Shown here in pieces: positions 13,919-58,867 of a DNA stretch of 64,000 nucleotides. The DNA is from Amoebophrya sp. A120 (Eukaryota; Protista; Dinoflagellata): contig CAJINV010000022.1 of the NCBI GenBank assembly GCA_905178155.1, forward strand, positions 248,001 through 312,000, given 5' to 3'. Below the pieces are notes generated by a model that was given only the letters and a program-made list of their open reading frames with translations, made no database searches and had not been told where the DNA came from. A program made the position numbers and the translations under genes. Every line of letters begins with the position of its first letter. Within the stretch, counting starts at the first letter, position 1.

Positions 13919-16900
13919 ATGGAGGACTTTAACGACCCCGTAAGACCGCTTCCTCCCGTAGCTGCTGTCGTCTCCGCCAGTCGGCTCAAGTACCTGCTGT
14001 CGGCCTCAGAAAACGTCGAAGATGAGGGGGACATTATCGATCCGAAAAATTATGCCACATCAACGACAGCACATGCACAACGACCTCCCCAACAACCACG
14101 AGAGTTCTTATTTTCCCGAGAAGTGCCAGCTGGCGAGGACAGTTGTAAAAATGCCCCTGTGCTAGGAGTCAGCATGACGAGCATCAACCTGATGCTCAAC
14201 GAAACCAACCTGAGTCGGCTCTTCGAGGATTCCAATCCGCTCGTCGCGGGCAACGAAGTTTCCAGTGAAGATGTTGACCACAACATCTTTGATCCCGAGG
14301 GCATGCTCGTCGACGACAACTGCAACTACAGTGTCGAGTCTAGTACTATCAACTGCAAATATGTCTGGGTCTGGAAACTTGTAATGCTGCGTTGGGAATA
14401 GTGAAGGCTCTGTAATGCACAGGCAAGCATGAGAAATATCTGCGCTTCTTTGTGTTGCGTTTTTCGCATGACAAGCTGCGTTTTTGCATGACATGCAAAG
14501 GGGTCTCTTCTTGGACACGCATCACAGACTTTTTGGTCATGCCAGACAAGCATGACAAGTCTCGCAATCTTCCAGACCCAGACATTTTTGCATGTGATAA
14601 GTACAACTCGGCGTAGTTCCTACTTGTACTTCCAGGAGGACCTGCAGTCATGCATGAAGATCCGACAAGTTGTATCCTGAGTAAAAACGTCCCCACACCA
14701 GAGTCAGGATGGGGATTTTGCAACACAAACCTAGGAGTTTTGGGTGTCACGCATGACAAATTGCGCTCCGCAGTGTAGTGCTGGTTAGCAAGTGCAGCCG
14801 CGTCACAGATTCATCTGCTCATCCTGTTCACAGCATCACAAATTCCAAAACACGACTGGCAATGGCTCTCATGGGGATGCGCATTACAAGTCTTCCTGTC
14901 TTTGCAAATCTGCATTACAACTCTGCTGTGGGTACGTTTTTACTCAGGATAAGTTGTAGACCGCTCAACAACATCTCCGTTCCTCTTCCTTCCCGCGACC
15001 CCCCAGGTGCCCCCGTTCCTCTACTGGCTCCTGGCGGCTATGAAGGACCCAAAACCCTACGGGGTCTACGGCTGGGGCCAAGCCACGATAGACAAGGAGG
15101 TGCTGGGCGCGGGCGGCGTTATGCATTGCAAAAGTATAATCGTACTAGTGCAAACTGCATGACAAATTTTGGCAAGAAGGAAAGTGGAATTTGTAATGCT
15201 GTTTCTCGCTAGGAAAAATATTTGTCATGCACATTTGCAAATAGTACGAGTACGATACTTTTGCACAGGATAGGCGTGTCTTCGGAGCAAAAATTTCTGG
15301 AATTGTTCGGCTTCACGCTGGATTGGACCCGGTTTCCGAAGATTTTCGTTTCCAAGACGCAAGTACGCATTGCAAAAGTATCGTACTACATATGCATTGC
15401 ATTACAAATTTCATCCTCAGCATGAGAAATAAAATCTGTAATGCGGGTCAACCTCAAGAAAAAAGATTTGTATATGCATGACTGCAATTACTATGAGCGC
15501 GATATTACTTTTGCAGTCCATAGCAAGCCCAGACCGCGAAGGGGCAGCCGACTCCCGCCACCCAGAACGGGGTGCGGGTGGGGGACCAGTTGATCATGAT
15601 AAACGGCAACCGATATCATTTGTAAAAACGTCCCCACCTCCCCAGAGTTGTAATGCAAATCTGCATGTTGAGAATGTTTCTCATGCCGAGACCCATGAGA
15701 AGCACTTTCTAGTCGTGTTTTGGGCTTTGTGATGCTAGAATCAGCATGATGCGCCAGATCTATGATGCTGCTGAGCAAGCTAGTAAACAGGATTACGCTA
15801 CGAGGGCAAGCCTGTCATGCGAAACAACCAAAGCTGGTGGATTTGTCTAGCAGATTGCCCAACTTGACTCTGGTGTGGGAACGTTTTTCCTCACAGTAAC
15901 CGAACCACGATGATTGCGACCTTTCCGGGCCGGCACGTCCACGACGCACTCCTTCAGCAGTTTGTCCAGCGGTCGGAGGCCGGCAAATCGCAGATCGCGA
16001 ATTGGATGTTCTTGTCCGGTGAAGCCAAGAAACAATACCTGCAAATCTATCAAAATGTAAAACTCCCCCTCCCCATACTGGAGCGGAGATTCGTGTAGCA
16101 TGATTTGTGACCACAAAACATGTTGTCATGCTAGAAGGCAAAAGAAGCGGATGCGGACAGTAATGCTGGGTGGCGCAGGAAAGCGCTGCATCTTCAGCAT
16201 GACAGGAGGCAACTAGAAATGGGAAACAGCACGACAAATCGCCTGCAATGAAGGCCGCAGCTGCGTCTCATGGCCTTCTAGCAATACAAGGCGACTTGTG
16301 TTGTACTCAAATACAGCATCACAAATTTCCTTTTCGATATGGGGAGGCGGGGTGATTTTTCTTTGCGATAAAATCCTGATCGAGGGGCCTGGGCTGCAGC
16401 TCGAGCGGGCGGGTTATCAAATGCAAAAATGTCTGGGTCTGGAAGAATGCAACTTGTAATGCTGCGTTTTGATGTCTAAAAAATTTGTGTTGCATGAGCA
16501 GCAAAAGGATTCTAATTTTTGCTACGCGGAGAGGGCATTTGTAATGCGGAATATGCATCAAGAATCTCTCAAAAAACCTGTGATGCTACGACATGCATCA
16601 CAGACATCATGATGGCTCATGCAAACCGTGCATGACAAGGCTCAGAATCTTCCAGACCCAGATGACACTTTTGCATTTGATACCGGTAGTAGTGCTGGCA
16701 GTGCTGGCACAACCACCTCCAACAGGACAGCAGTTGTACCCGAGTGGGCGAAGAAGAAAGGGGTATTGCCGGGTGACGCCATCGTATGAACTGCAAAAGT
16801 ATCGTACTAAGTAGTAGTAATTGCAATACAAATTAGCTCAGCTTGTTGACAAATGGGAATTTGTCATGCTGTTTTATCTTGGGATGGAGATTTGTAATGC

Positions 16901-19900
16901 ATGATTGCGATTACTACGAGTGCGATACTTTTGCACAGGATACATCGTGGTTTGCAACGATTTCCAATGTGGCGACAGCACCAGTGGGCTGGAAAAACTA
17001 CAGCAGCTGTTCAACACAACAACTTCCGACCCCACCGGCGCGTACGTGATTCTCCGACGGGAGGCCGGCTTTCCGGACGCTGTTTTGAGAACGGAAGTAA
17101 ACCTGGATCGCCCCTTGCCCTATGAACTGCAAAAGTATCGTACTAGTATAAATCACATGACAAATTTCCTCAGCATGAGAAATGAAATTTGTAATGCGGA
17201 TTTAACTTAACAGAAAAATTTGAAATGCATAAATGCGATTAATAGTGCGAGTTCTATACTTTTGCAGTTCATATGCCCGACGGCTGGATGACGGCAAGCG
17301 TTCCCATGCCTGCTGCAGCAATTATGGGAGTGTCAGGATCGAAATCGTCAAAGTTGAAATGACTTGTAATGCATAAAATGCATGACGTGAGGCGCGTGTG
17401 TTGCAGAGCAGGCAAGTAAGGCTGATTGTAAGCCTGTTTCAGGTTAGAGCTCGCGCTGCTAAGGTAGCATGAGAAAATCAGTCTTCTTTGCCTAAACAGC
17501 ATGACAAACTGGATTTAGGTGGCACCACCAACATTTGTCATGCGCCACTTGGAAACTGGGTTCCAACTGGCATCCAGTTTATGCATTGCAAATCATTTCA
17601 ACTTTGTCGATTTCGATCCTGACAGTTCCATAGCAATGATGTCGAGCGTAACCAAGGGGGAAGAAAGGCAGAGCACAAGCGGTGCTGGTAATATCTCGGC
17701 CTCCATGTCACCGGCGCAAATACAGAGCACGACGAACCCGAGCAACAAAATTTCCCCGTGGCTTTATTGGCTCCTCTCGGGCGTGCAGAAGATGGCCGAC
17801 TTCGCGCTCTACGGCTGGTCGCAAGCAACGATCGATGTGGAGTGCCTCAAGTCTTCGGGCGTTTTTTCCTCGGAGCAAAAAATGTTGGAGCTCTTCGGGT
17901 TTACGTTATGCATTGCAAATATGTCTTGGTCTGGATCTGGAAGGGTCCCAACTTGTCATGCTGTCTTTGGATTCTAAAAAAATTGTATAGCATGACGAGC
18001 AAGAGGACTCCAGTTGTTGCACTTCGGAGAAGGCATTTCTCATGCGGAGTAGGCATCAGGAAGCCGCGAAAAAACCTGTGATGCTAGGTCATGCATCACA
18101 GACATCATGGGTCAGGCAAAATGTGCATGACAAACGTTGGACTCTTCCAGACCCAGACATATTTGCAGTTGATATACGTTTGATTGCAGCAAATTTCCAA
18201 GAGTGTTCGTCTCCAAAACCCAGCCGAACACGTCGAAGGGGGCCGACACAAGGGCGACGCAGTACGGGGTCCAGGTTGGGGATCAGTTGCTGATGATAAA
18301 CGGGCAAAGGGTGACCATGGTCGCGTCTTGGCAGGGACGCCACTTCCACGACGCAATCATGGCCAACATCTTGCAACGCGTCACCGCGCAGAAGCCGCAG
18401 GTCGCGCACTGGCTGTTTTTGACTGGGGTAGGGAGGAAACAGTATTTGCAGATGCAGATCACGTATGAAATGCAAATATGTCTGGGTCTGGAAAGTTGGG
18501 ACTTGTAATGCTAGCTCTACATTACTGGAGGGAAATCTGTATTGCATAAGCAACAAAGGACGCAGCCACTTTTGTCATGCAGAAACGCAGTTTCTCATGC
18601 GGACTGCCTATGAGGAAGCATTCTGGAAAGTTGTCATTCTGTGCTGCATTCGGAAGTGTTTCCATCATCCACATTTTAGCATCACAGGTTTCCAGACCCA
18701 GACAGAGTTGCATTTGATATCACGCACAAGGATGAAGTCCAGCTGGACGTGAAGAAAACCGATTCCGGTCGCATCGTGAAATATCAACTGTAAAAATGTC
18801 TGGGTCTGGAAGAGTTCATGTTTGTCATGCTTGTCTGGCATGACTCTTAAATCTGTCATGCACGCTACCCAAGAGCTGCGCTTTTCTGTGATGCAGAAGC
18901 GCAGTTTGTCATGCAGAATAGGCAACACCTAGGAGCTCAGAAACTTGTCATGCTGAGCCAGCATTTGTAGCCTCATCATGAGACGCTACGCAGCATCACA
19001 AGTTCCCAGACCCAGACATTTTTACATTTGATATGAAAGATTCGCATTTTGGCGCTCGGATTTTGAGAAAAGACGACGAAATAGTGGCGGCGGGCGATTT
19101 TTTCTGCGGCGAAAGCGACAAGGAGGTATGGCGTCCTCAACTGTTACATTATCAACTGTTAAATGAATATGTGATGCAAGAATAGCAAAACTGAAAGCGG
19201 GAAGATTGTGCCTTTTGCATGACAGACTTGGCACAGATTCTCGGTCTGTTTGGGCCTTCCTGAATTTGTCATGCGCAGCAGCTTGATCGCGTCGAATCTG
19301 ATTCTTGGAGTTTTGCATGACAAATCATGTATACAGTTGAGAACGTAACGTCTGAGAACGCCATAGGAGGGGCTGGCGAAGTTGGAAAATCTGATGCTTT
19401 CATCGAACAACGGCGGGGAGGGCCAGTACGTGCTAGTCCGGCGAAAAGCCGGGTTTGAGGAAGAGGCTCTAGCCAACGAGCTGAAACTCGACCGCCCTCT
19501 GCCGGATGGGTGGCTCGCAACCGGAAACGTGCCGATGCCACCACCGGGATCAACAAATACTGCGGTGGTCCTCGCTTCCTCCTCTCCCACAGGAGGAGCA
19601 CAACAACTGCAAGACATCAGCCAGCTAGGTAAAAGTCAAGCCAGTGCAATTGCGGGTGCTGCGAAGATTCCGCCCTGGCTATCAAAAGGAAAAATCCCCC
19701 CTCCCCATATCGAAAAGGACTAAATTTTGTGATGCTGATTTGTGGTCACAAACAACCTCTGTCTTGCCTTTAGGGTAATGGGAGCAATGTGGCGCATTCC
19801 ACAGCCAGTCACAGTCTGTCATGCGCTTTCGACTACTGCAAACCTGTTTTTCGTGCCTTATTGCTAGCCTTCTGCACATTCGGACAGGCTTAGAAAATGC

Positions 19901-22900
19901 CGCCAAGCACTTTCTGCAAGACAGATCTGATTTGTGTACGCAAATCCAGCATCGCAAGCTTCTTTTTGATATGGGGAGGGGGGATAATTTTTCCTTACGA
20001 TATTGGCTTTACTGGCTCCTCTCCGGTGTGAAGGACATGGCGGGGTTTGAGCTTTACGGGTGGTCCCAGGCAACGATTGACGTGGAGTGCCTGAAGTCTT
20101 CGGGCGTTTACTTATCCTGTGCAAAAGTATCGTATTCGTAGTAATTGCAGTCATGCATTACAAATATCTTCCCTAAGCTAAATCCGCATGACGAATTTGA
20201 TCTCTCATGCTGAGGAAATTTGTAATGCATTTATACGAATGCGATACTTTTGTATTGCATATTACTCCTCCGAAAACAAGATGCTCGAGCTCTTTGGGTT
20301 TACCTTCGACTGCAGTAGATTTCCAAGAGTTTTTATCCGAGAAAAAAACGTTGTTATTGTAAATTTGTGATGCGCAACATGCAAGACGATTGCGTCTGTC
20401 ATGCTTGGCATGCGTCGTAGGGTCCATTAAAGGGCGTGCTCCCGTACTATCTGCGCATGACAGGTTGTTGCTGTCATGCCAGACAAATTTGTAATGCTGT
20501 TCCTCCAAAATTAATAGTTACACCGTACAATGTTTGTTTCTTGGATAGTTTTCGTCTCCAAGACGCAGGCCAAAACGGCGAAAGGGTCCGACACAAGAGC
20601 GACACAGTACGGGGTCCACGTTGGGTATCAAAGAAAAAAAGGTGTTTCTACCGCTACACATTTGCTCTTGGAGTTTCATCTGCATCGCAAATTTTCTGTG
20701 GCTGAGAGTAGAGAAAACGTGCAAGAAGATCTTAAGGGATGAAAATACGTAGGAAACAAAGCTCCCAGGCCTATACGGCATGACAGAGGTTGAGGTTGTC
20801 TCTATTGCTTGGTCTGCAACACAATGTCGTGTAACTGTCTGTAACACAACTTCTTTCACTGCATACGGGGGATCAGCTGTTGATGATCAACGGGCAAAGG
20901 GTGACCATGGTCGCGACTTTATCAAATGTAAAAATGTCTGGGTCTGGAAGATTAGAACTTGTCATGCTAAATCTGAATCGTGCGAAAATCTGTGTTGCGT
21001 GAGTACCAAAAGCTGTCCGCTTTTCACCAGGTTGAGAGGGAGTTTCTCATGCAGGAAGGGCATGATAGAGACCTCAAAGAATCTGTCATGCTGGGGCTCG
21101 CATTCCAGACCTCATGGGTCATGGAAAACCTGCGTCACAAATCTTGCATTCTTCCAGACCACCCAGACACTTTTGCATTTGATAGACTTGGCAGGGACGG
21201 CACTTTCACGATGCGGTGATGTCAAACATCTTGGAGCGTGTGATGGCGAAAAAGCCCCAGGTGGCGTACGAAAGTGCACAACTGCCCCTGCCCCTCATTT
21301 GTCATGCAAAATTCCGAATCCACACTTTGCCTGTTACCACAGATAATTGCATGACAGATTCCGGAATCCAAAACAGTACGTACAATCGATCCTCTAGAAA
21401 TTTGTCATGCAAAAGCTGCATTTTTTCCAGCGCGTGTGTTGCCGTTCCTGCAGCACAAATGAGGGGCAGGGGGAGTTGGGCACTCTCATATGACACACTG
21501 GCTGTTCTTGAACAGCAGTGGTAGGAAGCAATATTTTAAGAACTGCAAAAGTATCGTATTCGTATAAATGCATTGAAGTGAACCGGTACCCACGGGTGTT
21601 GACCGATCGACCTATTGCCAGCTAGGGGAGCACCCATGCGGTGGCAGGATCCAGCGCCCCTAGGTCGGGGGCGCTCCTGCCTTAGCCGTATGGGACCCCG
21701 TGGGCAGAAGTATCCACTCGCGCGCCGCGCCCGTTCTAGTTAGGGTCCATCTTCGATTTTTCTTCTCTTCACCAATTCGACAGGTCAAGCAAATCATTTC
21801 ACGCAGTTCGCTCCGGCTACAGTGATCTACCTAAACTTCTATTTTGATTTTACATTGCAAGGTGGTGATAAGTTGAGACACTATTCACCAGCTATTTACA
21901 AGCAGGAACATAGATAGTACGTTTAAACAGTTACTCGCTCGCCTAAAGTAGAAGCGAGCACCCGATTGATTTTACATTGCAACGTACAAATGCATTACAA
22001 ATTTCCTCAGCATGAGAAATAGAATTTGTAATGCGGATTGTGGTTAAGAAGGAGATTTGTAATGCATGACTGGGATTGCTACGAGTGCGATGCTTTTGCA
22101 TTTCATACATTTGCAGATGATGATCACGCACAAGTCGGAATTGCAGCTCGACGTGAAAAAATCGAAATGCAAAGTCACCGCGGATTCCCATTTCGGCGCC
22201 AGGATTTTGAAAAAAGACGACGAAATCGTTGCGGCAGCGGACTTCGTTTGCGGCGAAAACGATAAAGAGGGACTGGCGAAGCTGGAAAAACTCGTCGCGA
22301 ATAACGGGGCTGAAGGCCAATACGTGCTCGTTCGCCGGAAAGCCGGTTTTGAGGAGCAAACTTTGAAGGCCGAACTGAAACTCGACCGACCGCTGCCGGA
22401 TGGGTTATCCTGTGCAAAAGTATCGCACTCGTATGGCAATCATGCATTACAAATCTTTTCCTTAAGGGAAATCAGCATTACAAATTTTATCTCTCATGCT
22501 GAGGAAATTTGTAACGCATCTATGTATACGAGTGCGATACTTTTGCAATGCATATGGGTGGTTGCTCGGCAACGTGCCCCTACCGCCGGACTGGGAGAAA
22601 CAAGGGGGGAGTAGTAAACAAGGAGGAGGTCTTATCGCAAGAAAAAACTGTTTCACTGTGAACTTGTGATGCAGAGAACGAAGCACCAAAGTGTTTGTCT
22701 TGCTACACCTGCAAGACATTGGATCTTCAAGCGTGTTTTCCCTTGGAAAGCGCGCATGGCAAATTTTCCGTGTCATGTGTAACAAACTTGTGATGCAGAT
22801 CTTGCAAAACCACCACAGTGAAACAGTTTTTTCGTGGGATAGGACTGACATCCTCCACCTCGAACATAATTACCTCCGCAGCGGCGCAACAAGAACAGAA

Positions 22901-25900
22901 GCAGCCGCAGCAGTCTGGAGGCTCCACTTTAACTGCTAGTGCTTCTACTTCTTCCACCACCCCGCCGCCCTGGCTGTATTGGCTCCTCTCTGGTGCGAAA
23001 GACATGACCAATTTTGAGCTGTATGGCTGGTCACAAGCTAGCATCGACGTGGAGACCTTGAAATCCTCTGGCGTGTATTCCTCCGAAGCGAAAATGCTGG
23101 AGTTGTTCGGATTTACCTTCGACATCAGCAAATTTCCGAAGGTGTTCGTTTCCAAAACCCAGGCGAAAACGTCGAAAGGGACCGACACACGAGCCACGCA
23201 GTACGGGGTCCATGTGGGGGACCAATTACTGATGTTAAACGGACAGCGGGTGACCATGGTCGCGACCTGGCGGGGGCGGCATTTTCATGACTGTTTGATG
23301 GCAAACGTGTTAGAACGCGTCGAGGCGAAGAAGCCGCAGGTCGCGCACTGGCTTTTTCTGAACAAAAACGGACAGAAGCAATACCTCCAAATGCAGATCA
23401 CACACAAAGACGAGGTGCAGCTGGAGCTCGGTAGTATCCTGTGTAAAAACATCCCCACCCCAGAGTTGTAATGCAAAATGGCATGCCTAAAATGTTTCTC
23501 ATGCGCAGCTCCATGAGAGACATTTTCTCCTGCTATCTGGAAGCTTGTGATGCTGGAATCAGGATAAGGCAGTCGATTTGTCATGCGGCTGCACTACCTC
23601 AAACAGCACTACACTACGAGTCCAATAAACTTGTCATGCGAAACAGCCAAAACTTGTTGATTTGTGCAGCCAAAACCATATTGACTCGGGTGTGGGGCCG
23701 TTTTTACACAGGATAAGTAGTGGAGGTTCTTCTTCCAAAAGCACCAACTCGTTGAAAAGTACCAAAATCCAAAGAGATTCCCACTTTGGCGCTCGAATCT
23801 TGAAGAAAGACGACGAAATCGTGGCTGCGGGTGATTTATGCACTGCAAATATCCCTGGATGTCTGGAAGGATGCAAGGTTTGTCATGCTTGTCTGGCATG
23901 ACTGAAGAGTTTGTGATGCGTGTCCAAGAACAAGTAGAGACCCTTTTGCTTGTCATGCAAAAACGCAATTTGTCACGGGGAAAGCGCAACACAAAGTAGC
24001 ACAGATATTTCTCATGCTTCGCTGTCCATTACAGAGAATTCACTACTCACAACTCAGCATTACAAGTTTCCAGACCCAGATGAAATATTTGCATTTGATA
24101 TGATTTCTATTGCGGGGAAAACAACAAAGAAGGTTTGCAGAAATTGGAAAAACTCCTTCTCCAAGGAGGGTCGTCAACGTCATCTGGAGGGAGCGGAGGT
24201 GTGGGAACCTACATCCTGGTTCGGAGGAAAAAGGGTTTTGATATCCACAAAAAAACAACCATGATCTTCCCTATCCAATTTGTCATGCAGCCCATGTATG
24301 AAGTCCTGCTCCTGTGTTTGTCATGCATAAAATGCATTTGGTTTCGGATGGTTGTTTTTGCCTGGATATTTGAAAAAGAGGTTTTGAACTCCGAGGTCAA
24401 ACTGGACCGGCCGGTTCCGGAGGGGTGGTTGGCGTCGAATGTAGTTGTGCCATCAACTTCTTCTACCCCGGCAGCAGCTGCTGCTGCTGCTTCCGCAAAA
24501 GTTGTGAATGCCGGGGCGGCAACTGCAACAGCACAAGCGCCTCCAACCGGTGGCAGTAGTTCCCCCACAGCAGGTGGAGCAGCAGCATCAACATCAACTT
24601 CCCCCGCACCAACAGGGAAAGTGCTTTACACCCCCGACCAAGGTCCCAAAGTCACCCTCGTCGCGCCCACCAACGCCCTGCCGCCCGGAGCGAAGAAAAG
24701 TGGGAAAGCGGCGCCGTTTCTGTTCGCGTTGCTGATGAATTCCATGTCTTTGACCAAAGCCGGACTGGTCTACTGGGAGCAAACCACGATTGACAAAGAA
24801 GTGCTGTTCAACGGGGCACAGAACGGGTTAACGCCGAAGGAGCGCATATCGCACGAAAAAACTGTTTCACTGTGATGATTTTGCAAGATTTGCTTCACAA
24901 GTTTGTCCTACATCACAGAGAAAATTTGCCATGCGAGATTCCGAAGGGAAAACACAACTAAAAATCCATTGTCTTGCATGTGTAGCAAGACAAACACATG
25001 TGTGTTCCGTTCTATGCATCACAAGTTTACAGTGAAGCAGTTTTTTCTCACGATAGCGCATGGCGAAACTATTCGGCATGGAGCTGGACTGGACCCTGTT
25101 TCCCCTGTATCAACTGCAAAAGTGTCTGGGTCTGGAAGAGTCGGGGCTTGTCATGCACATTTTGCAGGATCCGCGAGGTCTGTGATGCTGGTGCTAGCAA
25201 CACAGATTTTTTGAGAGCCTTTTGATGCTAGTTACTCATGAGAAACGCCCTCTCCGCGTGCCAAGAGCCGAGTCCTCTTGCTGCTCATGCAACACAGATA
25301 TCTTTAGAATCCGCAGACAGCATCACAGGTTCCACTCTTCCAGACCCAGACACTTTTGCAGTTGATACCCTGGTAAAAGTGACGAAAGTGATCGGGAGTA
25401 AGCAGAACCCGACGCGGGCCTTCAATTGCGGGGTCGAAGTGAACGACTACTTGGTCATTGTCCACTACTATGCAATGCAAAAGTATCGTACTAGCTGTAG
25501 TAGCATACATTGCATGCGTGCATGACAAATATCTTTCTAAACCTGAAACAGCATTACATTTTACAAATTCCACTTCTGTTCTTGCCGACATTTGTGATGC
25601 AAGTTATACTTTACTAGTATGGTGCTTTTGCATTGCATAACTACCAACGCATGACGATGGTGATGCAGTGGAAGGGTGTCGACCCCAACGACGCGATCCT
25701 AAACGTGATCGGAAAAGAATACCAAGCCGCGGATATCCTGTGTAAAAACGTGCCCACCCCATAGTCAAGCTGGGACTCTGGCAAGACAAATCGAGCATCT
25801 TTGAGACTCACGCATGACAAGTTTGCCTACGCAGTGTAGTCGTGCCTGGCTAATTCAAACGCATCACAGAAGATCCAGTCTGTCATCCTGATTAGCGCAT

Positions 25901-43501: not shown

Positions 43502-45319
43502 TAGTTGTAAGAACGGGCACGCCATACAACAGGAGTGCTTATTTCGGATATAATAATCTAACGCTTTTCGTTTTCAACTGAAAAATTCTCTTTTCGCCGG
43601 GCGGTGTCCTTTCCAAGAAATAATTAATGACGATAGAAGCAGATGGACCGCAAGATCATGTTGCAAGTACTAGTGATAGAGCATTCTTTTTTTTTTTTTG
43701 AAATTACAACGAATGAGCAAAGTTGATAAGGCTGTCTGTTTTTACAAGTCGTAGCGGGAACAGTGTGCTTCTGCTTTCTCTGTATGATTGAACATTGTCG
43801 TCAAGCAATTTGGGTTGTGTCAACCGAAATTTTCACGGTGTGAAGACAATCAACGACGAAGAAACGCGGGCGGTGTGAACACTGGCCATCTTGCATGTCA
43901 AGGAGAATCTAGGTGGGATTCAGTGTTTCTTAGTCGCAATCAATCTATGGTGAACTATCGTCACAGCCTGTGGGGAAAAATTTAGCGTTCCGAACAACAC
44001 ACAAATTTTGACGTCTCAGTCAAGGGGGTAAACATGAAAGTTCAAATTTATTCTAATCACCCTAAATTTATGAGAAATCCGATCAACCATCGTTGATCAT
44101 CACTAGCTTACAGTGTGGGTTTAGAATGAACTTCATTTTTGGTTCATTTGTATGAACATGCTGATTTCACTTTGGATCCAAATTTGAACGACAAATTTAG
44201 AGCCTGATTTCAATGAACATTCAATTTAGGTCGTAGGGAATTTGCTTGGCTTATGATCCTGGTGGATTTCATATCTTGCCTAACAGGTTGAGACTTGATG
44301 TTTCAAGTGAAAGTGCTTTTGTTTAAGATAAGTACAACAACTACAAATAGACCATATAAACAGATTTATTACAAGTGGAGCAAGACCAGATGAGCTGCGT
44401 TCGTTCCGATATTAGCTTTTGAAGATACAACAAGCAGCTGTTGATGTAGCCACGAAAACAAGTATCATCTTCTACGCAGAACTATTGCTCCAAGAGTACT
44501 TCTATCGGTGTACTAGCGCATCAACGTCGTGCTTGATATACACGAGGACAGCTGGTGCCGAAATATTGGTCCTCTACGCACGAGCCACCTGTGGTTTTCG
44601 TCAACTCGTCCTGGTGTTCTCTCGTGTTGTTGGTTGATGTTTCGTGAAGCCGCCTCAAGGCGAAGATGTCGTTTTCTTGTTTCCGAGTCGTATTGAGTAG
44701 CCGCCGGTAGAACGTTTCGCTTCAGGTGGTAGTACTAAGAACTAGCTCTGCGATTCATCCCCGAAAACGGCAATCAAGACGAGACTTCTATCTGATGAAC
44801 TACGCCGGCGATTACTTATTTGTCATCAAGTGAGATGTGGATAGCTCGTTGTTGTTGGTGGAAAAACATATAGTTTTTTCCCCGCCTTCTATTTATATTT
44901 GTACGGGCCTTTTACTTAGTTTGAGAATTTAGTATGCATCGTTCTTCTTCCAGTAAGTTTCAATTACAGCACACCACACCGCAGCCACCAGCACCAGCCG
45001 GAAATAGAATGTGTTAACAAATAGAAAAGCTCATAATGGAGATGCAGCTTGCTTCTGCAGCTCCGCTTTCATCCTTCTGATGAGGCCGAAAAGATGAGGA
45101 GCTACCGTCCTGCAGTTGTACAAGGTCTCGGGCAGCTTCTGGCCATAGTTCATCGTCCCGGGTCGGCTAGTACAACCTTCAAGGAGATCCTCTTCGCGGC
45201 CCCTATGAGGTGACGATCGCGAAGTACAAGTAGACCACGCAGCTTATTTGCATCTGGAATAGGACCACCAGCAGACATTCGCACCGGCCCGCCCCGGCAA
45301 GAAGAACTTGTTCCCCATC

Positions 45320-48300: not shown

Positions 48301-51300
48301 ATGCTGCTCCAGGTAACCAAACCACAGGATCGACCCCGTCGAACCTTCTTGCGGGGTTACTGGGCAACGTTCGTGACAGCTATAAGTTTGCGACATCTAC
48401 TACTTCGGGCGGACTAGGGGTGGAGCGGGCTGCTCTTGTCGGAGCTGGTACAACTAACGTCAATGACCGCAATGCTGCGTCTTCATTCTTGTCTGATGAT
48501 CAGCTGATGAACAACTCAAATTCGTCTTTCACCAACGCACGGCTGGTCGGAATCGATTCTATCGGGTTTTCGAAATCTATCTCCACCAGCACCCAGCAGA
48601 AAGTAGAGGTGACAGACGTCGAACAAGAAGAACCAGAAGCACATTTGGCGAACCTCTCGTCTGAAGTCCTGAACGGCAGCACAGTCGTCATCAACGGTGT
48701 CGATTTGAGCACGGGGCGCATCGCACCGCCACCCGAGCCGGTTGCTCTTTCAACAAATGATATATTTGCAGGAGGGAAGAAGCAGAATTTTTATGCGGAA
48801 AGTTGTACTGGGGCAGGCGTTCTTCTTAGCGAAGAACTACAGGTGGGAGACACGACGACCACAAGTAAAGGTGGAGCCAACATGTTTACTAGTGCACCAC
48901 CGGGGGATGCCGCCGCCGCGGGAGCGGGACCTTCGCATAATAATAATCTCAGCAACAATGTTGACAAGAGCATCCGGGTTTCTATTGACGATATCTCCTC
49001 CATTCGCGGCATGAAAACCTCGCTGTTGTCTCACAGCCTAGATTATGAACTGCAAATATGTCTGGGTCTGGAAGCTGCATGGAAGTTTGTCATTGCCATG
49101 CTCGGCTGGCATGACAGACTTCAACTTCTCACTCTGCGATGCATGAACAGAAAAAAAGGCCCATTGCCTGTCACGGAAAAGCGCCGCGGTTTGTAATGCG
49201 CAAAACGAAACACAAAGACAAAGCCCAGCTCAAAAACTTGTCATGCTTGGCTGCGTATTGCAGTGCTGCGCCCACCATTCACGTATTTGCATCACACCCA
49301 GACAGATTTGCAATGCAGTTAGATTTGGAGCGAAAAAACAGCAGTTCCTTCATCTCCCCACCGGTTTTCCGACCTCCCAGCAGGAATGGAAGTGTGAATC
49401 AGGGATACAAGAATTTGAATTCCTCCAATTCCAACTCTAGGGCGACCAAGCCGGGCTTCGCCTCTGTCGGGGCGAGACCGAGGGCGGGAGGCGGACCAGG
49501 GCCGTTAGGGACCACGTCGGCCACGGGGTCGAGTAGTAATAGCGCAGGAGGCGGTGCAAATACTCGGACGACTACGCCGGTTTTGTCTTCCTCTAGCTCC
49601 TATGCATTGCAAAAGTAACGTACTAGTATGAATTGCATTACAAATTTTCGCAAGAAGAAAAGGTGCATTTGTAATGCTGTTTTAGCTTTGGAGGAAGATT
49701 TGTCATGCATTTTTGCAATACGAGTACGATACTTTTGCACAGCATGGCTCCACTTCGAAACTACGCATTCGCCAGCCCCGAGTCGGAGGGGTTCCGATTG
49801 TAAGTCGGCAGGGGAGATCTTCTGGTGCGGCGACTAGTATTACACATGCCCCCGCAACATATTCATCTCAGCATTCTTCTTCTTCCAGAAATCTGCATCT
49901 GCCAGTGCGCATGGGGCGAACAAGCGGCGGGAGCAGTAGTACCATCCCAAGCAGCTCCGCACAGAAACTTCACTTAGCGGCGCCTGGTGCAGCACAAGCT
50001 GTTTCTACTTCCTCAGCCGATCACAACTCCAAAGCGGAGATGAGTTCGGCTAGTAAAGGTGTATCCGCTACGACCACGCCCTCGACAAAAGAGCCCACAG
50101 TGGGCAGCGGGCTGAGGGCAACTACACCAGGTGGATCCTCATCCTCTACCATGATGACAAGTGGGTTGCTGCTTGGTCTATCCACAGTACTATCGAATTT
50201 CCCGTACTCGACAACGTCTACAAGAAATTCCTGCGTTTCTGCATGGCACATAGACCTTTCTCTAATCTTGATCTATCCTATTCTAGATCGTATTCAGCAC
50301 GTTTTTAACAAGCGGTGCGTGTGACTGTGAGATTCGGGATCATGTTCATGAAGAATTATTCAAATTGTGATATTGTATGTGGACGGTAAATTTGCGTTGC
50401 ATATTGTGCAGGCAAGAAAAAATCAGAGAAGAACCTGATCACAACATCGTCTCTCGATTTCGGAAAACTCGCGACAGGTACGACGACCAGCTCTATTGAA
50501 ATAGAAGAATCCTGGCGGGTTATTTCTGCCAGTTTGGATACTGGTGATATGATCAGGAACAACCGGTATGGAGCTCTGAATATTGCGAGTGGAACTACAA
50601 TGCCAGGCAGTGCTGCGGCCTTCCACAATTATGCCGGCGTGAAGAAATCTTCCGCGACCTCGACCTCCGATTTGCTGCAGCAGTCTGTCATTTCCCATTC
50701 ACAAGACCGCGGGGGCTGCAGGTCCCCCCTGGACAGGTCGGGTTTTCAGCCGTCCTTTATCCCCATGGCACAGAGGAACATTCAAGCGATATCCTGTGAA
50801 AAAACATTCCCAAGAATATCCCATAGAAGTTGCCATGCCTGTTTGCAATTGCAGGAGCATTTGTAATGCGCATCCCCATGACGAGACGCACTTGCGAGCG
50901 TGTTTTGGAACTTGTGATGCTGTAGAAAGGATAAGAAGATCGATTTGCTATGCGGCTTCCGCCTTGCTAAACTGCGTTGTGTATATTACAGCCTGCAACC
51001 TGTCATGCATGACTCCCAAAGCTCCCAGCTTTGTGTTGCGAAATCCCCATTGGCAACTCTGGGGTGGGGACTTTTCTACATAGCATAAGCGAAAGTCGAC
51101 ACGGGCCTGAGCAATTCATCTAATATGTCGAATAGCAACACACCAACCCAAATCTTCAACACAAACAACAATCCGAGTAGAGCCACTGCCGCTGCATTTG
51201 TGTTCGGTGGAGCCGGGATAAAAATGAGCGGCGTTGGTGGTGCAAGTGGAAGTGCAACTGCAGGCCTCTCTGCACGAACGACTCTGAATATTAAACCTAA

Positions 51301-53717
51301 ATCCACCAAACTACTGCTGGGGGGCGACCCCAGTGCAAAAATAGGTGCAAAAACTTCAGCAATCGGGAACTGCTCTACTGGGCAGCAGCTCCCGCCAGGT
51401 GTTGTTTGTTCAACAAGCCTTCCGGAGGAGCCGTCTGGTGGCGGAGGGACCACGACGACTGTGAGGGCAACGACCTCTTCCGCGTCCGCCCCGGGAGCTC
51501 TTGCTAGTGACTTGATAGGCGCTGGTGGAGGCACTAGTACCAGTACAGGCACCCGAGCAGGAACTACTACGCCACATCAAGTGCAAGTCGCGGTCCCCGC
51601 TCCTATACACGTGAACCGGCCAGTCAGCCGCCGCGCTACCGCCAGCACGGCCTCGACCTCCGCCGCGCAGAGCCGCCGGTCGACTTCTACAACGAATCTC
51701 CGGGGAGGAGGCGGGGGAAGTGGTACTACAGCCACGGGGGGCTCTGTTGCCAACCTGCGCGCAGGAGGTGATCTTCTGGGAGCCTATGGATTGCAAAAAT
51801 GTACGGGTCTGGAAGATTGCAACTTGTAATGCTGTCTTTGGATTCCAAAAAAATCTGTATTGCATGAAGACCAGCAACAGGACTACAGTTTGTGTTACGC
51901 GGAGAGGGCATTTGTCATGCGGAATAGGCATTAGGAAGCCCTCTAAAAATCCGTGTTGCTAGATCATGCATTAGAGGCATCAATCATCATACAAAATACG
52001 CATGACAAGTCTGCATTCTTCCAGACCCAGACATTTTTGCACTTGATAGAGCAGGTGCTAGGCCAAACTCTTCCCGACCCAATAAAGCAGGCAGCAGTGC
52101 GAGCAGCGTCAACCTCTTACGTGGTGGTGGGGGCCACAATTTTACACCGTCCCACCCTTACCTGTCCACACAAGTTTACAAAGCGCGGAACAATACTACT
52201 AGCGGCACGACGCCCACGACGAGCTCGTCTTTGACGCCGAATTTGAAAAATAGACCCCAATCACAACGCACACTGCAGATGATGCAAGGTAGAGACCAAC
52301 ATCATCAGCAGAAAAAATTTCGCCCGACGTTCTCGGATAGGAGAAAGCCAAGTAGTGGCAGGGTCGTTGCATCTGGTACATCGACTTCTTCGCAACAAGC
52401 GAGGGGATTTTCACTCGATCGGGGAAACAACTTCAAAGGAAGCAATGGCGGTGCGCAGCTGAGAACTGGGGCGGGTGGTATAGGGAATTATAACTATGGC
52501 GCGATCAAGGGCGGAAACGTTGGACACGCGGCGCAGAGCAGAAATATTAATTTTCACAACAACTCTTCCACTACGCAACAAGATCAATATCTTCATCTCC
52601 AAGGAGCACAGACAAGCATGAGTGCTGAGATTTCGGCGAGTACGCGAAAGGTTCACCAGAACTTGTTTGAGGAAATAATCCGGCGGAACGCGACCTACGG
52701 GCAACTGCTGCAAAAAATCAAGCAAGCCTACGAGCAGGAACTGGACCGGAAGATGGCGATAGTATATGCATTGCAAAAATGTCTGGGTCTGGAAGAATGG
52801 AAGCTTGTGATGCGCATTTCAGAACACAGAAAAAATCTCTCATGCATAGACAGCATAAGTTGCCCACTTTCGGTCACCAAAATGAGGGATTTGTCATGCG
52901 GATTCGGCATTGCGGAAGCTTTTCGAAGTCTGTGATGCTAGAGCTTCCATGCCAGACCTTCTGTGTCATGCAAAAACAACATGACTCTCCCAGACCCAGA
53001 CATATTTGCGTTTGATAGAGTACCTGCTGGAGGAACTGGGGGCAAGGGTGGCGGGAAAGGTACTTCCTACGTATGTCGGAAGAACAAGCACAGATTGTTT
53101 TTATTTGGTCTGTGTATAGCAAAGTCAGTCACGTAGAACTAGGAGTATGGATGGTAACTAACTAACATCATGTTGAACATGAAGTCAAGATGTAGGTTCA
53201 CAACAACGGAATAAAACTTCGTCCAAAAAAATAATAACCCACAGCTCTTCACGACCAACACTTTCACCACCAGGACAGCACCCTGACCCGCGACTATCTT
53301 CTCGCGGAGCGGCGCAACGAGAACGCGAAACTAGAATTAGAGAAGCTCACGAATGACTTGAGGCAGGAAAGCGATAAGCTACAGAAATCGCAGAAGCTTT
53401 TCGAGTACACCCTCGACCAACTGCAGAGACGATCGCCGGCCCAGCGGTCGGAAAAATCCTTAGCGTTGCTCTCTTCCATCGAACCCAGCGGCATGAACGA
53501 ACTAGACACCGAGGACGGCCAGACCCCAGGTGGGCACATTCTTTTTTCCGAAAGCAACTATTTAAACAGCAAAATGGACAAGACCAACTCGGTCAACATG
53601 CTCTTCGACGCGTTAAACGGGATGGACAACAGCTTCTACTCTGCCGGAAATATCACGGGAACTTCGATTACGCGTTGCAAATATAATGATGATTTCTGGA
53701 CGTCTGGAGAGTTGTGA
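45320..53717 (+). CDS. Large S/T/G/A-rich low-complexity protein with C-terminal coiled coil, possibly TSNAXIP1-N-like; start uncertain
   Basis: Continuous frame after removing 8 introners and GT-AG introns 50161-50411 and 53071-53273; segment KVHQNLFEEIIRRNATYGQLLQKIKQAYE resembles TSNAXIP1_N from memory, needs an HMM check. Confidence 0.75.
45690..45984. mobile_element. Introner, family F-like
   Basis: AAAAATGCCCCCACCCCC..GGGGGCGGGGGCAATTTT, TSD CGGCA. Confidence 0.9.
46100..46351. mobile_element. Introner family A
   Basis: TAC..ATG, TSD CCAGA. Confidence 0.9.
47233..47496. mobile_element. Introner family A
   Basis: TAT..ATA; right ACAAA copy displaced by 3 nt; frame kept either way. Confidence 0.85.
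49044..49319. mobile_element. Introner family A
   Basis: TAT..AGT, TSD TAGAT. Confidence 0.88.
49601..49746. mobile_element. Introner family C
   Basis: TAT..ATG, TSD GCTCC. Confidence 0.9.
50790..51087. mobile_element. Introner family B
   Basis: TSD AGCGA. Confidence 0.9.
51785..52048. mobile_element. Introner family A
   Basis: TSD GAGCC/GAGCA. Confidence 0.9.
52765..53017. mobile_element. Introner family A
   Basis: TSD TAGTA/GAGTA. Confidence 0.9.
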
Positions 53718-53760
53718 AGATGCTCCTGATGTGTGGAAGTTGTAGATGAACTTGAAGAAC

Positions 53761-54655
53761 TATTGAAAGAAAAAACTGTGTTAGTGTAGGTGTTGGAAAA
53801 ATCACTACTTTTTTTGATATGCAAAACTAAAAAATTCTCAAGCTGCGGCGCAATCAACGACCTGGTATGTGTTGACGTTTATAAGGTGAATTTATATAGT
53901 CAAAACTAGCTACGGCTGCTGCGGTATATGTGAATAGTTAAGGAGGCAGGACTCCAAAAGTCCGAACGCGGAAAGTATAAGGAGGCCGAAAGTTCCAGAA
54001 CCCGCGCGCGAACGGCGTTGACTGCAATTCGGGCAGGGAAAACAGAAAAGTGAAAGTGTAGGCCACATTCCGGAAAAGGGAAAATGACGAGTGTAGCAGA
54101 GAAACTCTTCTCCTTGGGGGGGTCGAAAGGACGTCCAGAAATCGCACTACACTCGTTCGGATCTCTTTTCCAAGATGGCCATTTACAGTGATTCTTTTTT
54201 CTTTTTATAGGTGGGGATTAGGAAAGAGAAAATTGCCAGTGTAGCATTTTCATTATCGCGCTGGGGGGGTGGTCGGGGGGGGTCGAGAAAGTGCCTCGAT
54301 TTCAACGCGACCTGAAGAGTTGGCTTTGCGCTTACAATCATAAAATTATCTTTTCCGCCTCCAATTCTTCGGACTTTTCTCTTCTCAAAATGAAAACGCA
54401 ACAAGGGCCGGCATGGAGGAGTACTACGACGATGCCCAGCGGGTTTCGAAGCAGAAACATAAGCCCTGCCTCCTTAACTAGCTAAAGACAATTATTACCG
54501 AGGCAGCCGCTAGCTACTTGTATTCCAAGCACCACAACACAGGCAGCATTAAGAAAACCGGACTTGCCTGCTCTTGAAAAAATCTTGAGCCTCCGCTATT
54601 AAAAAATATCGCACTTTCTGAAATACCTACACTAACACAGTTTTTTCTTTCAATA
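53761..54655. mobile_element. 895-bp non-autonomous long-TIR DNA transposon with introner-type ends
   Basis: 31-bp perfect TIR TATTGAAAGAAAAAACTGTGTTAGTGTAGGT, patchy extension to about 190 bp, perfect TSD AGAAC. Confidence 0.9.
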
Positions 54656-54848
54656 AGAACACAGCACTTCCGAACTACGCACGGAAGCATGACACGCTTG
54701 CAGAATGCCTTCTATTACGCAGTTCTTGTCCGCATCATGAGCTCCTGCGCACAGAAAAATAAATGTAAGGCCAGCAACGTATTTACACAATTACAAGTTC
54801 CAACTTTATCCCAGAACCAGGCATAGAAATTTGCACTCCTGGATATCG

Positions 54849-57800
54849 ATGCTCGGGACGAACAACACGATCAACACAAACAACACCACGCTGCACAACA
54901 TCAACTCGAAGTTGGAAGTGCAGAAGGTGAAGGGCTCGAAGATAAAGCTGTCGACTAACACTAGCATCAGCAACAACGACAACTCAAGCAATAACTTAAT
55001 GCTGGCCGAGCCGACTCCGGCGATGCTCGATGAGAAACAGAAGGAGCTGTATGACAGTGCACAACTCCCCCTCCCCCTCATTTGTTTGTCATGAGCAGCA
55101 ATGCAAACACCAGCACACGTGGAGCCTCGGCATGACTGATGTAGTACTGTTTGGGCTTCAGAATCTGCCATGCAATAAACAGTGCCACGAGGCAGCGACT
55201 GGGTTTGGTGTTTTGCATGACAAATGAGGGGGAAGGGGAGTTGTACAAATTCATTAGCTGATGAAACAGCCAAGAAACGAGTTGGATGGGGGTCGTGTGG
55301 AAAATTTTGTCGGTGACAGGTAAAGATAAGTACTCATATTGCTTTTACTGCCGATGCAATGCTGGTCTAGCGCACTGTATGTCTATGGCAACGCAGACTG
55401 ACTGCAGTATATCCTTGCGGGTGATATTTTGCCGCATGGTGTCATGGGCTAATTTTTCTAAGCTGCGAATAGCATGCAGGAAAATGTTATGCAACATGGT
55501 ATGATAGACGACGTAAAATAGTGGTTTCAATACAAATGATCATGATTTCGCAGGAACGTTATAACGTTGTATGAAAAATCAATATAAACGACAAATACAC
55601 AGGGTCACGGCCCAAGTCATTCACGGTTCTCCGGAATTCAACATGCCGACTGTGCACCAAATAAACCACGACGGGGGAGCCTCTATGCATTGCAAAAGTA
55701 TCGTACTCGTACTAAAACTAATCGCGTTCCTGCATTACAAATTTCTTGCTCACGTTAAGTCCGCATTACAAATTTCATTTCTCATGCCGAGGAAATTTGT
55801 GATGCGCTTCGTGCTGGTAAGATAATTTTGCAGTGCATAGCCTCCATTTCGCAGCAAAACAGCGCAACGAAGAACAACAACAGGATGAATGTTCTCGCGA
55901 GTCCGAATTCGCAAGAGTCTTGCGAACTGCTGAACCAAGCGATACTGAGCTCGCCGGTTTCCGATTTGAGCTCAATCACGGGTGGGTGTGGTGCTGGTGC
56001 AGGTGGTGTCTCAGGACTGACGAACAACACACTGATATTAAACAACGGAGGAGGTGTAGGTGGTACTAGTGGGGCACAACTTTTATCCTCCTCGTCGGGA
56101 GTAATAAACAACAGCGGGAACAACAGCAGCTCGAGTCTTTTGATCCCAACGCTTTCAGAAGGTGGAGGGAATGGGATCCCACCTCCGCGAGAGCCGAACT
56201 CTACCATCGGAACGAATCAACAGCTGAATCGGACAAGCTCTTTGACGGCATTGCAGGGCAGCTTCATGCAGGAGGGACAAATTCCGATTGGTTTTGGTAG
56301 CCGGCCACAGGAGCAGCTGCAGGGAGCAGAAATAAACGTGTCTAGGGCGGGAGCAGACAGTATCCACAGTAAATTTCCCGTACACGTAGAAATGCGGTCT
56401 CTGCATGACAAAACTTGGCTTCGATCCTAGTTTAGCATGACAAGTTTTACGCTCCAAAATGGTGAAATTTGTGATGCATCTTGTACATATACGGGAGATT
56501 TGTATTCCATAGACAGCAACACAAATTCCGCGACTTTGAACTCGAATTTTAGTACGACGCCAAACATGTTGAACCTAACGCTGACGCCGAACATGCTGCG
56601 AAACGAAATCGGCAGGGGCAGTGCGGGAGTTGTTGGCACGACACTGTCGAACGGCATGACAGATACCTGCTACGGGGAAATGGACCAGATGATGGAAGTA
56701 CCCTGTGCAAAAGTATCGTACTCGTATTGCAATCATGCATGACAAATCCACCTTTTGTTAAGGTAAATCCGCATTACAAATTTAATTTCTCATGCTGAGA
56801 AAATTATTTGTAATGCATTTAGGCGAGTGCGATACTTTTGCAGTTCATAGGAAGCGTCGCACTACAAAAACCAGGGCACTAGGCCCTCTTCCTCGGTTCC
56901 TGCAGAGGAGCTTGTTCACAACGGTACTTCTACGAGGCACAACAAACTTGGAGCTGCCAAGAGGCTGCAGTCAACTCAACAACAAAGCGCCTCTACTTCC
57001 TCTGCGGTTGCAAGCGGACCGCCTGCTGCAATACCAATACAAATTCAGCAACAGCAGAATATTGCGACGCAGCAAGTTTTTTCGTCTGCAGGCGTAACAA
57101 TAAATCCTCGTGGTCCACCAGCACCGCCCGACATCGACAGTTCGCTGCGTACGTTGTCACCCTTGGAAACGCCGGAGAAAGTTTTGAGCTTGAATGCCAA
57201 GGCGCGAATGAAACTCGGTGTGGAAAACAAAGTGGATCGCTACGTCCAGGAACTGGAGATGGAGGACGAGGAAGCATCTTCGGAAAGCTGTGGTCCTCAC
57301 CACGGTGCTGGACGAGGACCTGCTGCGGTGTTAACAATCCCGAAGATCCAGGAGCCGCCCGAGGAGGCAGCAACTACTTCCGGGGCCAATCCCAATGCCA
57401 ACTGCGAGGATATGCATGGCAAAAGCATCGCACTAGTAGAAACCACATCACAAGTTTTTTCATTCGAGTACTAGAACAGAAATGCAATTTGTCATGCTAG
57501 TTCAGGTGGTAGAATCATGCATAACTACAAGTAGTACGAGAGCGATACTTTTGCAATGCATAGAGGAGCTGCGAGAGCAATACCACTACGCCTCGGGCTC
57601 GCCGTCGTTTCGCGAAGGTGCGACGGCACCGGTTTCCCGTACAATTTTTGAGATACTTGATTTATTTCCTGAAATTGTCAACATGCAGGACACGCAGCAT
57701 GATGATGATCGTCTTTGTTGTTGATTTTTCGCGCATTACAAAGTACTACTTAAGGTGCCAAAAGCCTTAAAAACTTACTCTGAAAAGCCTCCGAAGCCGA

Positions 57801-58867
57801 TTCTTCTGTTGAGGGTGGTCCGCGCTTCGAGCAGCGCGTCTTCCATCCAAAAATCAAGAGGCCGGACTTCATTCCAGTTCTTGATTTGAACAACCTTTCT
57901 GCCGAGGAGTCGAGTTACGAGAGCGACGAGGAGGAGGAGGAGGATCCAGAGGACCACGGCGATATGCATTGCAAAGGAACTCTCGTATTGCTAAGTAGAA
58001 ATTGCATTACAGATTTTCTCAGCATGAAAAATTGAATTTGTCATGCTGTTTTGCCTTCTTGTAAAGGAGATCATGTATATCTGCAATTTGTACTTCTAGT
58101 ACGAGTGTGGTACAACTTTTGCGCAGGATAGTCGATGCTGAGGGGGAACTCGACGACCAAAATCTCAGCGAGGCAACCATGGACAACGCGCCTATGTATC
58201 CACAGAAATAACGAAAAGTACGGGCATTCCCATCTTCCGTATAGTTTGCATGATCAATACAGACTCAGGCCCGGCTTCGTGGCCGCGTTTTGCATAGCAA
58301 ATAGGAAGATCAACTGGCGGATAAGAAAAGTTTTCTTGTGGATACGAAGGAAGAGGACGAGGATGACCTGGAAGAACTGGATCAAGGTGCTGGAACATCA
58401 AGCCTCTCACGTATGAGAGTGAACAGCCCCCCTTTTCCCGCCGTCCTCCCTCGTTTGTAAATGCAAAATACCAAATTCATAAACTATATCCTGCCTGTAA
58501 ACACTGTCAGCATGACGAATTTTGGAACCTCGTCCTCGAACAGTTGCACTCCAATCCTCCCGGCTCGGCAGCTTTATTGTGATTGTCACGCTTCATCAGC
58601 AATTGCCTGTGTTACTCCTGTGTGTGCCCTACATGATCACGACATGAGAGGGACCACGTCGAGAGGGAGCTGCAGCTGTTGTGCACTTTCATATCACGAC
58701 CAGCGCCTCCAGTTGTGGAGCTCGATCTCGGATCTAGCAGCGGCGACGCAGATAGTGGGCGTAATTATGACTACCAAGAAAACGAAAACCACGGACACTA
58801 CGCGAGCGAAGGCGAGATCGAAGAAGAAATTGAGGAGGACATTGAAGCGGAAGTAGAAGACGAATAA
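54849..58867 (+). CDS. Hypothetical N/S/G-rich protein with acidic C-terminus; start uncertain
   Basis: Continuous frame after removing 8 introners and GT-AG introns 55320-55602 and 57618-57787; ends EEEIEEDIEAEVEDE-stop. Confidence 0.72.
55050..55255. mobile_element. Introner family G
   Basis: TAT..ATT, TSD AGCTG. Confidence 0.9.
55684..55839. mobile_element. Introner family C
   Basis: TSD GCCTC. Confidence 0.92.
56361..56511. mobile_element. Introner family L
   Basis: TSD GACAG. Confidence 0.92.
56699..56849. mobile_element. Introner family C
   Basis: TAC..ATA, TSD GGAAG. Confidence 0.92.
57411..57562. mobile_element. Introner family C, diverged
   Basis: TSD GAGGA. Confidence 0.9.
57963..58130. 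mobile_element. Introner family C, diverged
   Basis: TSD GGCGA/GTCGA. Confidence 0.85.
58197..58344. mobile_element. Decayed introner, family K-like
   Basis: TATCCACAGAAA..TTTCTTGTGGATA, TSD CTATG/CGAAG; removal restores the acidic frame. Confidence 0.65.
58412..58693. mobile_element. Introner family G
   Basis: TSD TCACG. Confidence 0.9.

Follow-up and report, generated by a model that had tools for sequence, protein, structure and literature searches.

The 64,000-nucleotide stretch of Amoebophrya sp. A120 analysed here (contig CAJINV010000022.1, positions 248,001 to 312,000; hereafter the window) contains genes interrupted by many short non-coding elements of the introner type. These elements form families with different terminal inverted repeats (TIRs) and share one internal motif, TTGTNATGC. 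We propose that this motif is probably the binding site of a single mobilising protein common to all families, probably an integrase-type DDE transposase. A mobilising protein acting at the DNA level is favoured because the elements are flanked by a 5-bp duplication, the motif slots are kept while the spacers diverge, the distances of the sites from the element ends are fixed, the elements lie in genes in either orientation, and the motif decays in old copies. An integrase-type enzyme is indicated by the 5-bp duplication, the TA ends and a published A120 family, family 38, with integrase-like homology.

The elements of the window are introners

We identified 77 non-coding elements in the window, 110-350 bp long, with TAT...ATA ends and a 5-bp target site duplication (TSD). 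Replication was done on 163 loci (L001-L163) from another assembly, which hold the same families; the motif was chosen on the window. Because these loci were picked by the family A TIR, family A is over-represented in the enlarged set (216 of 478 full-length copies). Among the blastn matches listed, those shared by the outside loci were solely element-derived. De novo detection of elements gave 29 false positives in 240 kb of reversed control sequence, and 41 singletons were therefore dropped. One window candidate (9677-10140), two duplicated copies (2051 and 2421), 114 partial matches and, for the analysis of spacing only, the nested element at 21537 were also left out.

A TAT start and an ATA end were both present in 424 of the 478 full-length copies. 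The duplication was perfect at 5 bp in 341 copies, at 3 and 4 bp in 9 and 3 copies, and at 6-8 bp in none; the duplicated bases show no strong preference, and mismatches between the two duplication copies amount to 7.7% per site over both copies. The terminal repeat consists of TAT, about seven variable bases and an A-run, the latter being weaker in families E, H, H2 and G. Stops interrupted all three frames in 207 of 248 oriented copies. The elements thus share with MITEs (miniature inverted-repeat transposable elements) a short length, TIRs, a TSD, many copies and no coding capacity. Three family TIR patterns gave no match in viral_contigs.

Introners of A120 have been described as carrying an inverted repeat that starts from TAT and continues with seven variable bases and an A-run, short direct repeats of 3-5 nt, a length of about 240 nt and NT donors (PMC7789003). 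On sequence grounds the present elements are assigned to this class, because the TAT-starting inverted repeat with its A-run, the direct repeat at the border and the removal with non-canonical borders all match. The lengths near 149, 209, 260, 278, 305 and 319 bp of A120 families listed as "TIR DNA, Unknown" (PMC12130899) also match families in the window.

The original prediction counted about 15 families. In the window we obtained 11 multi-copy groups and 4 singletons; the elements at 22633 and 20334, however, which had been separated, belong to one family. The enlarged set comprised 14 families, which alignable stretches of their consensus sequences collapse to about 8 deep groups. Some consensus match was found in 40 of 91 family pairs: B and J align at 64% over 152 positions, D and N at 66% over 156, G, H and H2 at 64-69%, and E and F at 63%. 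Since related families share 63-75% identity over part of their length only, they appear to be old relatives and not recent copies of one another. Recent derivation of the families from one ancestor had been named as an observation that would speak against a shared reader; an ancestry is indeed shared, but it is deep.

The motif is confined to the elements

The strict word (T/C)TGT(A/C/G)ATGC matched 217 times in the window, with 204 matches in 18,783 bp of elements, 2 in 24,355 bp of exon and 11 elsewhere, in agreement with the prediction that exons largely lack it. In the 77 curated elements, 197 matches compared with 2.8 expected under a Markov-1 model (maximum 7 in 100 simulations); at least one match was present in 69 elements and at least two in 61. 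Two GT-AG introns and three stretches between genes had no match. The outside loci of at least 1.5 kb, overlapping loci being kept, gave 1104 matches in 105.8 kb of family sequence and 72 in 382 kb outside it, or 10.4 versus 0.19 per kb. A matrix seeded on the word and refined by expectation maximisation (EM) read aaaT(T/C)TGT(C/A/G)(A/T)TGCa, with variants tolerated, and a variant of the word stands at position 4 in several TIR ends. A satellite at 61190-61750, with a unit of about 21 bp, contains the word found in some TIR ends and gave 15 plus-strand and 18 minus-strand matrix matches above 7.5.

Sites are phased to the element ends

The consensus maps of the 14 families contain 2-7 conserved slots each; the slots are about 90% conserved and the spacers between them near random. 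At 18 of 28 family ends the site nearest the end faces inward, at an offset of 32-34 (6 ends), 40-44 (10) or 55 (2). These offsets are concentrated in phase (R=0.83; best period 10.75-11), also with one end per family in 12 families (R=0.89; 0 of 5000 null). At the right end of family A the offset is bimodal (33 in 50 copies, 41-42 in 93, 34-40 in 18), amounting to a jump of one helical turn. Of the 14 families, 12 have a same-strand pair of sites 31-33 bp apart (2000 random layouts gave a mean of 2.1 and a maximum of 7; best-window null: maximum 9 in 400). Because some families are old relatives, both tests were rerun on deep groups: the end offsets gave R=0.92 in 7 groups (p=0.003), and the pair was found in 6-8 of 8 groups (median 7); of 1500 trials of the best-window null, 49 attained 6 and 2 attained 7. 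Both patterns therefore survive the collapse to deep groups, and the phasing of the sites to the element ends is well supported.

The positions from which the phasing had been predicted were confirmed: first inward sites at +33 (14347), +32 (22633), +33 (21267), +32 (20334), +42 (17323) and +43 (33035), exceptions at +39 (24242), +48 (19680) and in an 18-bp pair (20471/20489), and 31-bp pairs at 14379/14410, 22444/22475 and 31169/31200. The inward site is not universal: one lies within 60 bp of 80 of 152 window ends, families B and J having none and C and D one at a single end. Between sites, the spacings 31-33, 16-18, 33-34 and 46-50 recur, opposite-strand distances clustering at 15-18, 33-34 and 46-50. 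The period of 10-10.5 bp anticipated between sites was not supported as a smooth 10.5-bp comb; the sites follow a set of fixed distances, a grammar whose commonest unit is three turns.

The motif decays with age, and elements lie in either orientation

Mismatch between duplication copies was used as an age clock, and decay was tested on families A-H (438 copies with at most 3 duplication mismatches). Compared with five agreeing nearest neighbours, copies differed at 4.0% of motif positions and 8.8% of other interior positions, and the value was lower for the motif in all eight families tested. With increasing duplication mismatch, differences at motif positions climbed from 3.4 to 5.0 and 7.0% (321, 79 and 38 copies) and those at other interior positions from 7.7 to 10.9 and 13.2%. 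In the same classes TAT differed by 0.9, 0.3 and 0.5%, figures lowered by end calling, which favours TAT. Lineages that spread thus keep the motif, whereas old copies lose it, at a rate compatible with neutrality or weak constraint. Neutral decay had been put forward as evidence against the prediction and is in part what we see; decay in older copies is expected, however, of a site that serves mobility and that the host can do without. These observations suggest two codes in one element, an internal mobility code that decays and a terminal splicing code that is kept. Sense and antisense motifs did not differ in decay (145/3670 versus 125/3398, p=0.58).

Transcript orientation was assigned in the loci by a heuristic on open reading frames (ORFs), which in the window gave 61 plus, 0 minus and 9 unknown. 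Elements lay in genes in both directions (A 57/41, B 18/24, C 9/10); family D alone leaned to one (17 versus 5, uncorrected). In family C, where every site stands on one strand, reverse copies thus place none of them in the sense direction and forward copies none in the antisense direction.

Elements are removed from RNA with one duplication copy

All 40 elements bridged by RNA-like contigs were removed, each with exactly one duplication copy, 11 by a direct joint (element length plus 5 in each) and 29 by length sums. The latter came from five longer contig gaps whose sums were exact, one of them after allowing for a 207-nt GT-AG intron. The bridging contigs derive from runs labelled "RNA?"; none of the runs recorded as RNA covered the stretch, and the raw-read run X9 covered 4 of its 30 bins. 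We read these contigs as spliced RNA because two GT-AG introns are missing from them as well, while run X1 has contigs that continue into elements. At 31127, for example, 154 nt were removed, contig pieces 30633-31121 and 31276-32053 being contiguous; removals at 40631 (290 = 285+5) and 41887 (166 = 161+5) were likewise exact. Exact removal extended to elements with no sense site (25734 and 26234, reverse copies of family C), no antisense site (23435 and 40631, forward copies of that family) and no strong site (28364, within a seven-element length sum, and 32779, within another exact sum).

Elements with differing duplication copies locate the cut. Where the difference fell in positions 1-3, contigs held the 5' copy (eight elements); three elements are informative for positions 4 and 5 (30371 and 39920, Table 1; at 42107-42413, as at 39920, the contig held the 3' copy at a differing position 5). 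A single rule, in which the intron is N-TAT...ATA-NNNN, fits all of them. In agreement with it, the first T of TAT was broken in 0 of 239 donor ends and 8 of 239 acceptor ends (two-sided sign test, 0.008), and the A120 introner donors GT/CT/AT/TT (Table S4 of PMC7789003) are those that N-TAT gives. We saw no preference for G at donor +5 (38 versus 51, p=0.20) and no selection on intron length modulo 3 (163/158/157).

Comparison with known systems

Short end words combined with internal sites are features of V(D)J/Transib signal spacers and of hAT/CACTA subterminal repeats, and offsets one helical turn apart occur there. Transib/RAG signals end in CAC, and their spacers are unequal between one end and the other; this assignment was rejected on the TAT ends and on the equal offsets in families G, E, H and F2. 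hAT5 elements have a 5-bp TSD, YA..TR ends, subterminal repeats and a hAT transposase. The TSD and TA..TA ends agree with the present elements, and no hAT protein was found among 90 ORFs scanned. In Tn7, spaced weak internal sites give specificity at the ends (PMC9308760), and a short end word, internal sites and the importance of spacing recur here. Unlike in all these systems, sites in the introners fill the whole 110-320-bp element in both orientations and are common to unlike TIR families; there is no unequal-end rule (families with 33/33, 42/42 and 43/43), and the elements double as introns.

Among integrase-related enzymes, IS3EU/GingerRoot elements share TA..TA termini with those studied here and encode an integrase-related DDE enzyme, but their TSD is usually 6 bp (PMC10045372) against 5 bp here (341 versus 0 perfect), and membership was rejected on duplication length (0 of 478 perfect at 6 bp). 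Ginger2/TDD, with its integrase-like enzyme, agrees in duplication length (4-5 bp; 5 bp in TDD-4/5) and was rejected on its termini, TGTNR against TAT; Ginger2 also prefers RTATAY targets, a preference lacking here (PMC2836005). A120 family 38 combines a 5-bp TSD, TA/TA termini, TIRs and integrase-like homology (PMC12130899, text to Fig. 2F and Dataset file 8), and is a candidate for the mobiliser class. At about 810 bp with ORFs it is unlike the present elements, the comparison being one of published descriptions.

Which factor reads the motif

A host DNA-bending cofactor of transposition, with an HMG-box or IHF/Fis-like role, could read the word, leaving just TAT and the A-run at positions 11-14 to be read by the catalytic enzyme. 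Such a cofactor, acting on DNA, phased and needed for spread alone, fits the same data, from which it cannot be separated from reading by a transposase; a host factor would further account for the sharing across unlike TIRs and for sites far from the ends, and the reverse strand of the word contains ACAAA, which we take to resemble HMG-box sites. Yet the motif is missing from exons, canonical introns and intergenic DNA, unlike the site of a general host factor, and the word variant at position 4 of several TIR ends is what one protein reading both would produce. We regard the cofactor as unlikely, while granting it some weight. Less credence goes to the view that the word has no function and is left over from a unit repeated in the single ancestor of all families, a reading already largely refuted. 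Consensus stretches do align between families, and the 32-bp spacers are slightly alike (0.38 versus 0.30 shuffled), but slots stay conserved next to near-random spacers, in every family tested the motif is lower in differences than the rest of the interior, by about half, and offsets shift by one-turn steps even inside one family.

That the word is an RNA signal, a protein site or internal stem guiding a modified spliceosome to non-canonical introns, would accord with the exact removal of every RNA-bridged element, with the reported lack of U1 snRNA (PMC7789003), with the ability of opposite-strand copies to pair and with motif decay that may be slower than neutral. We nevertheless judge it very improbable: polar family C, whose sites cannot pair mutually, stands 9 to 10 in the two orientations, the six elements lacking sense, antisense or any strong sites are all removed, decay is equal on both strands, and one-turn end offsets are a property of DNA. 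Just as remote is a chromatin or chromosome-architecture site retained by the host after insertion. Dense, phased, strand-independent sites and the scoring of the 21-bp satellite on the same matrix would suit it; decay with age, absence from other non-coding DNA and a geometry tied to the element ends do not. Of the trans-acting readers originally proposed (a transposase, a chromatin protein or a splicing adaptor), a factor of transposition at the DNA level is thus the one left, because conserved slots, a fixed geometry across unrelated TIRs and one-turn end offsets support a shared DNA-level reader, and the other two are disfavoured.

Several observations weigh against the proposed mobilising protein. 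Neither a transposase nor an autonomous element was found: none of 90 ORFs scanned (231 listed) matched such a Pfam family, the roughly 0.6 Mb examined held no cognate autonomous partner of the kind expected for MITEs, and in PMC7789003 no transposase is reported for A120. Of five longer TIR pairs (457-1104 bp), three were inspected and look like copies of a family that carry an insertion. With age, differences at the motif rose 0.56 times as much as those elsewhere (95% confidence interval 0.28-1.10), leaving room for residual host constraint. As to geometry, same-strand spacings of 18 (in five cases) and, in family C, of 48-49 do not agree with the helical phase, and 21 and 42 are missing; a fit equal to that of the helical model (R 0.42) is obtained with an orientation-blind lattice of 15-15.75 bp (R 0.47-0.57); Rayleigh tests confined to the window and taking a single copy of each family gave weak results (p 0.03-0.26); the lack of inward sites in families B and J has not kept these from spreading; and, ancestry being shared, the geometry may be partly inherited.

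Under the proposal of a common mobilising protein, protomers bound to the motif sites would sit on one helix face relative to the cut end and would assemble a paired-end complex. Specificity would then come from the internal array and TAT, not from the family-specific TIR, so that one enzyme could serve many unlike TIR families. After insertion the host would likely need the ends only, the intron running from one base before TAT to four bases past ATA, with N-TAT giving GT, AT, CT or TT donors and the exon being restored exactly.

Other features of the window and the loci

The host genes of the window, with approximate limits, are listed with representative elements in Table 1. After removal of the elements, the first gene has frames of 2738 codons (13900-32420) and 2274 codons (from 32621), and no Pfam family was found among its exons scanned. 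In the next host gene, 52006-52932 gave a weak Pfam match to TSNAXIP1_N (E 8.6e-5), under the curated cut-off. The outside loci encode a C-5 cytosine methylase domain (L021:1-1083) and a DNA ligase N-terminus with a DRMBL domain (L013:690-4790).

Table 1. Introners, canonical introns and host genes of the window, in window coordinates
Feature	Position	Strand	Description
Family A introner	14347..14599		sites in this copy: +33, +64 forward; 120, 140, 173, 204 reverse
Family A, 19 window copies	e.g. 16415, 17907, 18464, 18782, 20920, 23837, 25108, 27053, 30052, 30371		
Family A, further copies	32057, 37560, 41479, 46100, 47233, 49044, 51785, 52765		
Family B introner	31127..31275		present in 15 copies of about 150 bp; neither end has an inward site nearby
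Family C introner	37943..38224	+	10 window copies; six same-strand sites at 32, 63, 114, 147, 196, 227 (polar array)
Family C copy, reverse orientation	26234..26518	-	six antisense sites; none on the sense strand (best score 2.9)
Family C copy, forward orientation	40631..40915	+	five sense sites, no antisense site
Family D introner	22633..22841		with 20334, 24847, 26583, 27990, 41139; 20626 and 29563 cluster with D; first site +32
Family E introner	17323..17632		with 42107, 43113; inward sites 42 from both ends
Family F introner	19680..20002		with 16048, 28788; 45690 related
Family G introner	21267..21490		with 39920, 55050, 58412, 8952; inward sites 33 from both ends
Family H introner	33035..33270		with 19127; 38989 related; inward sites 43 from both ends
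Family M introner	24242..24368		two sites, same strand
Family J introner	29337..29502		with 56361; old relative of family B
Family K introner	41887..42047		with 36431, 7974
Decayed element	28364..28497		best internal site scores 8.2, under the level of 9
Decayed element	32779..32919		no internal site (best 5.7)
Element informative for the cut	39920..40166	+	duplication copies differ at position 5; contig has the 3' copy there: cut at or before position 4
Element informative for the cut	30371..30628	+	position 4 differs between the duplication copies; the contig piece beginning at 30633 has the 5' copy: cut at or after position 4
Canonical GT-AG intron	32414..32620	+	207 nt, motif absent
Canonical GT-AG intron	42577..42886	+	310 nt, motif absent
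Host gene (limits approximate)	13900..43500	+	open frame once elements and 5 bp are taken out
Two more host genes (limits approximate)	44990..58870	+	carry the rest of the elements

At 21537-22107 a family B copy is split inside a motif site by an insertion of about 420 bp, which has flanking direct repeats of about 14 bp and a repeated tail end and resembles a retroposed fragment. The 1068 bp at 1776-2843 repeat 16140-17207 exactly, introners included, and are joined to a near copy of 21637-22079; the whole (1776-3294) is flanked by a short repeat also found at 1733, 3305, 4488 and 5606, and may be an artefact of assembly or have been captured during break repair by a truncated retroelement tail. 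A lone family A left end at 62523-62590 is followed by a GC-rich tandem repeat region, and a long imperfect palindrome at 4850-5200 is of another repeat type, lacking TAT ends. In elements of the window and loci, copy-specific indels comprised 404 insertions and 68 deletions, with peaks at 3 nt (183) and 6 nt (45), and rose with age (0.31, 0.63 and 0.72 per copy); exact tandem duplications accounted for only 37 of the 183. This pattern suggests a bias of mutation towards 3-nt insertions, which could feed the fast low-complexity protein evolution of the lineage.

Significance for introner biology

Introners of A120 were already known. The available portion of PMC7789003 leaves their movement and splicing open and gives no transposase or unifying motif. 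The published accounts (PMC7789003; PMC12130899), in those parts, treat the ends only, with no mention of a shared motif inside the element, of a rule for spacing, of a 5-bp duplication throughout or of one rule for the cut, and the reviews PMC11282704 and PMC11453091, likewise in part, describe ends only. A literature search covering freely readable text, though not the figures in PMC7789003 or the longer cells of supplements, found no report of an internal motif, and the internal code described here would thus be an addition to these accounts.

We tentatively suggest, as a possibility going beyond the binding site itself, an unclassified eukaryotic system whose specificity would lie in a universal internal nonamer under helical rules (sites at 32.5, 43 or 54 bp from the cut, and pairs at 32 bp). 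A single enzyme could then spread tens of thousands of introns with unlike TIRs, while the 5-bp staggered cut and TAT would create the splice rule N-TAT...ATA-NNNN that restores every exon. Because an autonomous copy is not known, this enzyme may act in trans or be a domesticated one. A nonamer common to the families, with a geometry that can be measured, offers a bait for pull-down and a signature for finding the autonomous element, and it suggests that many apparent introner families form one system.

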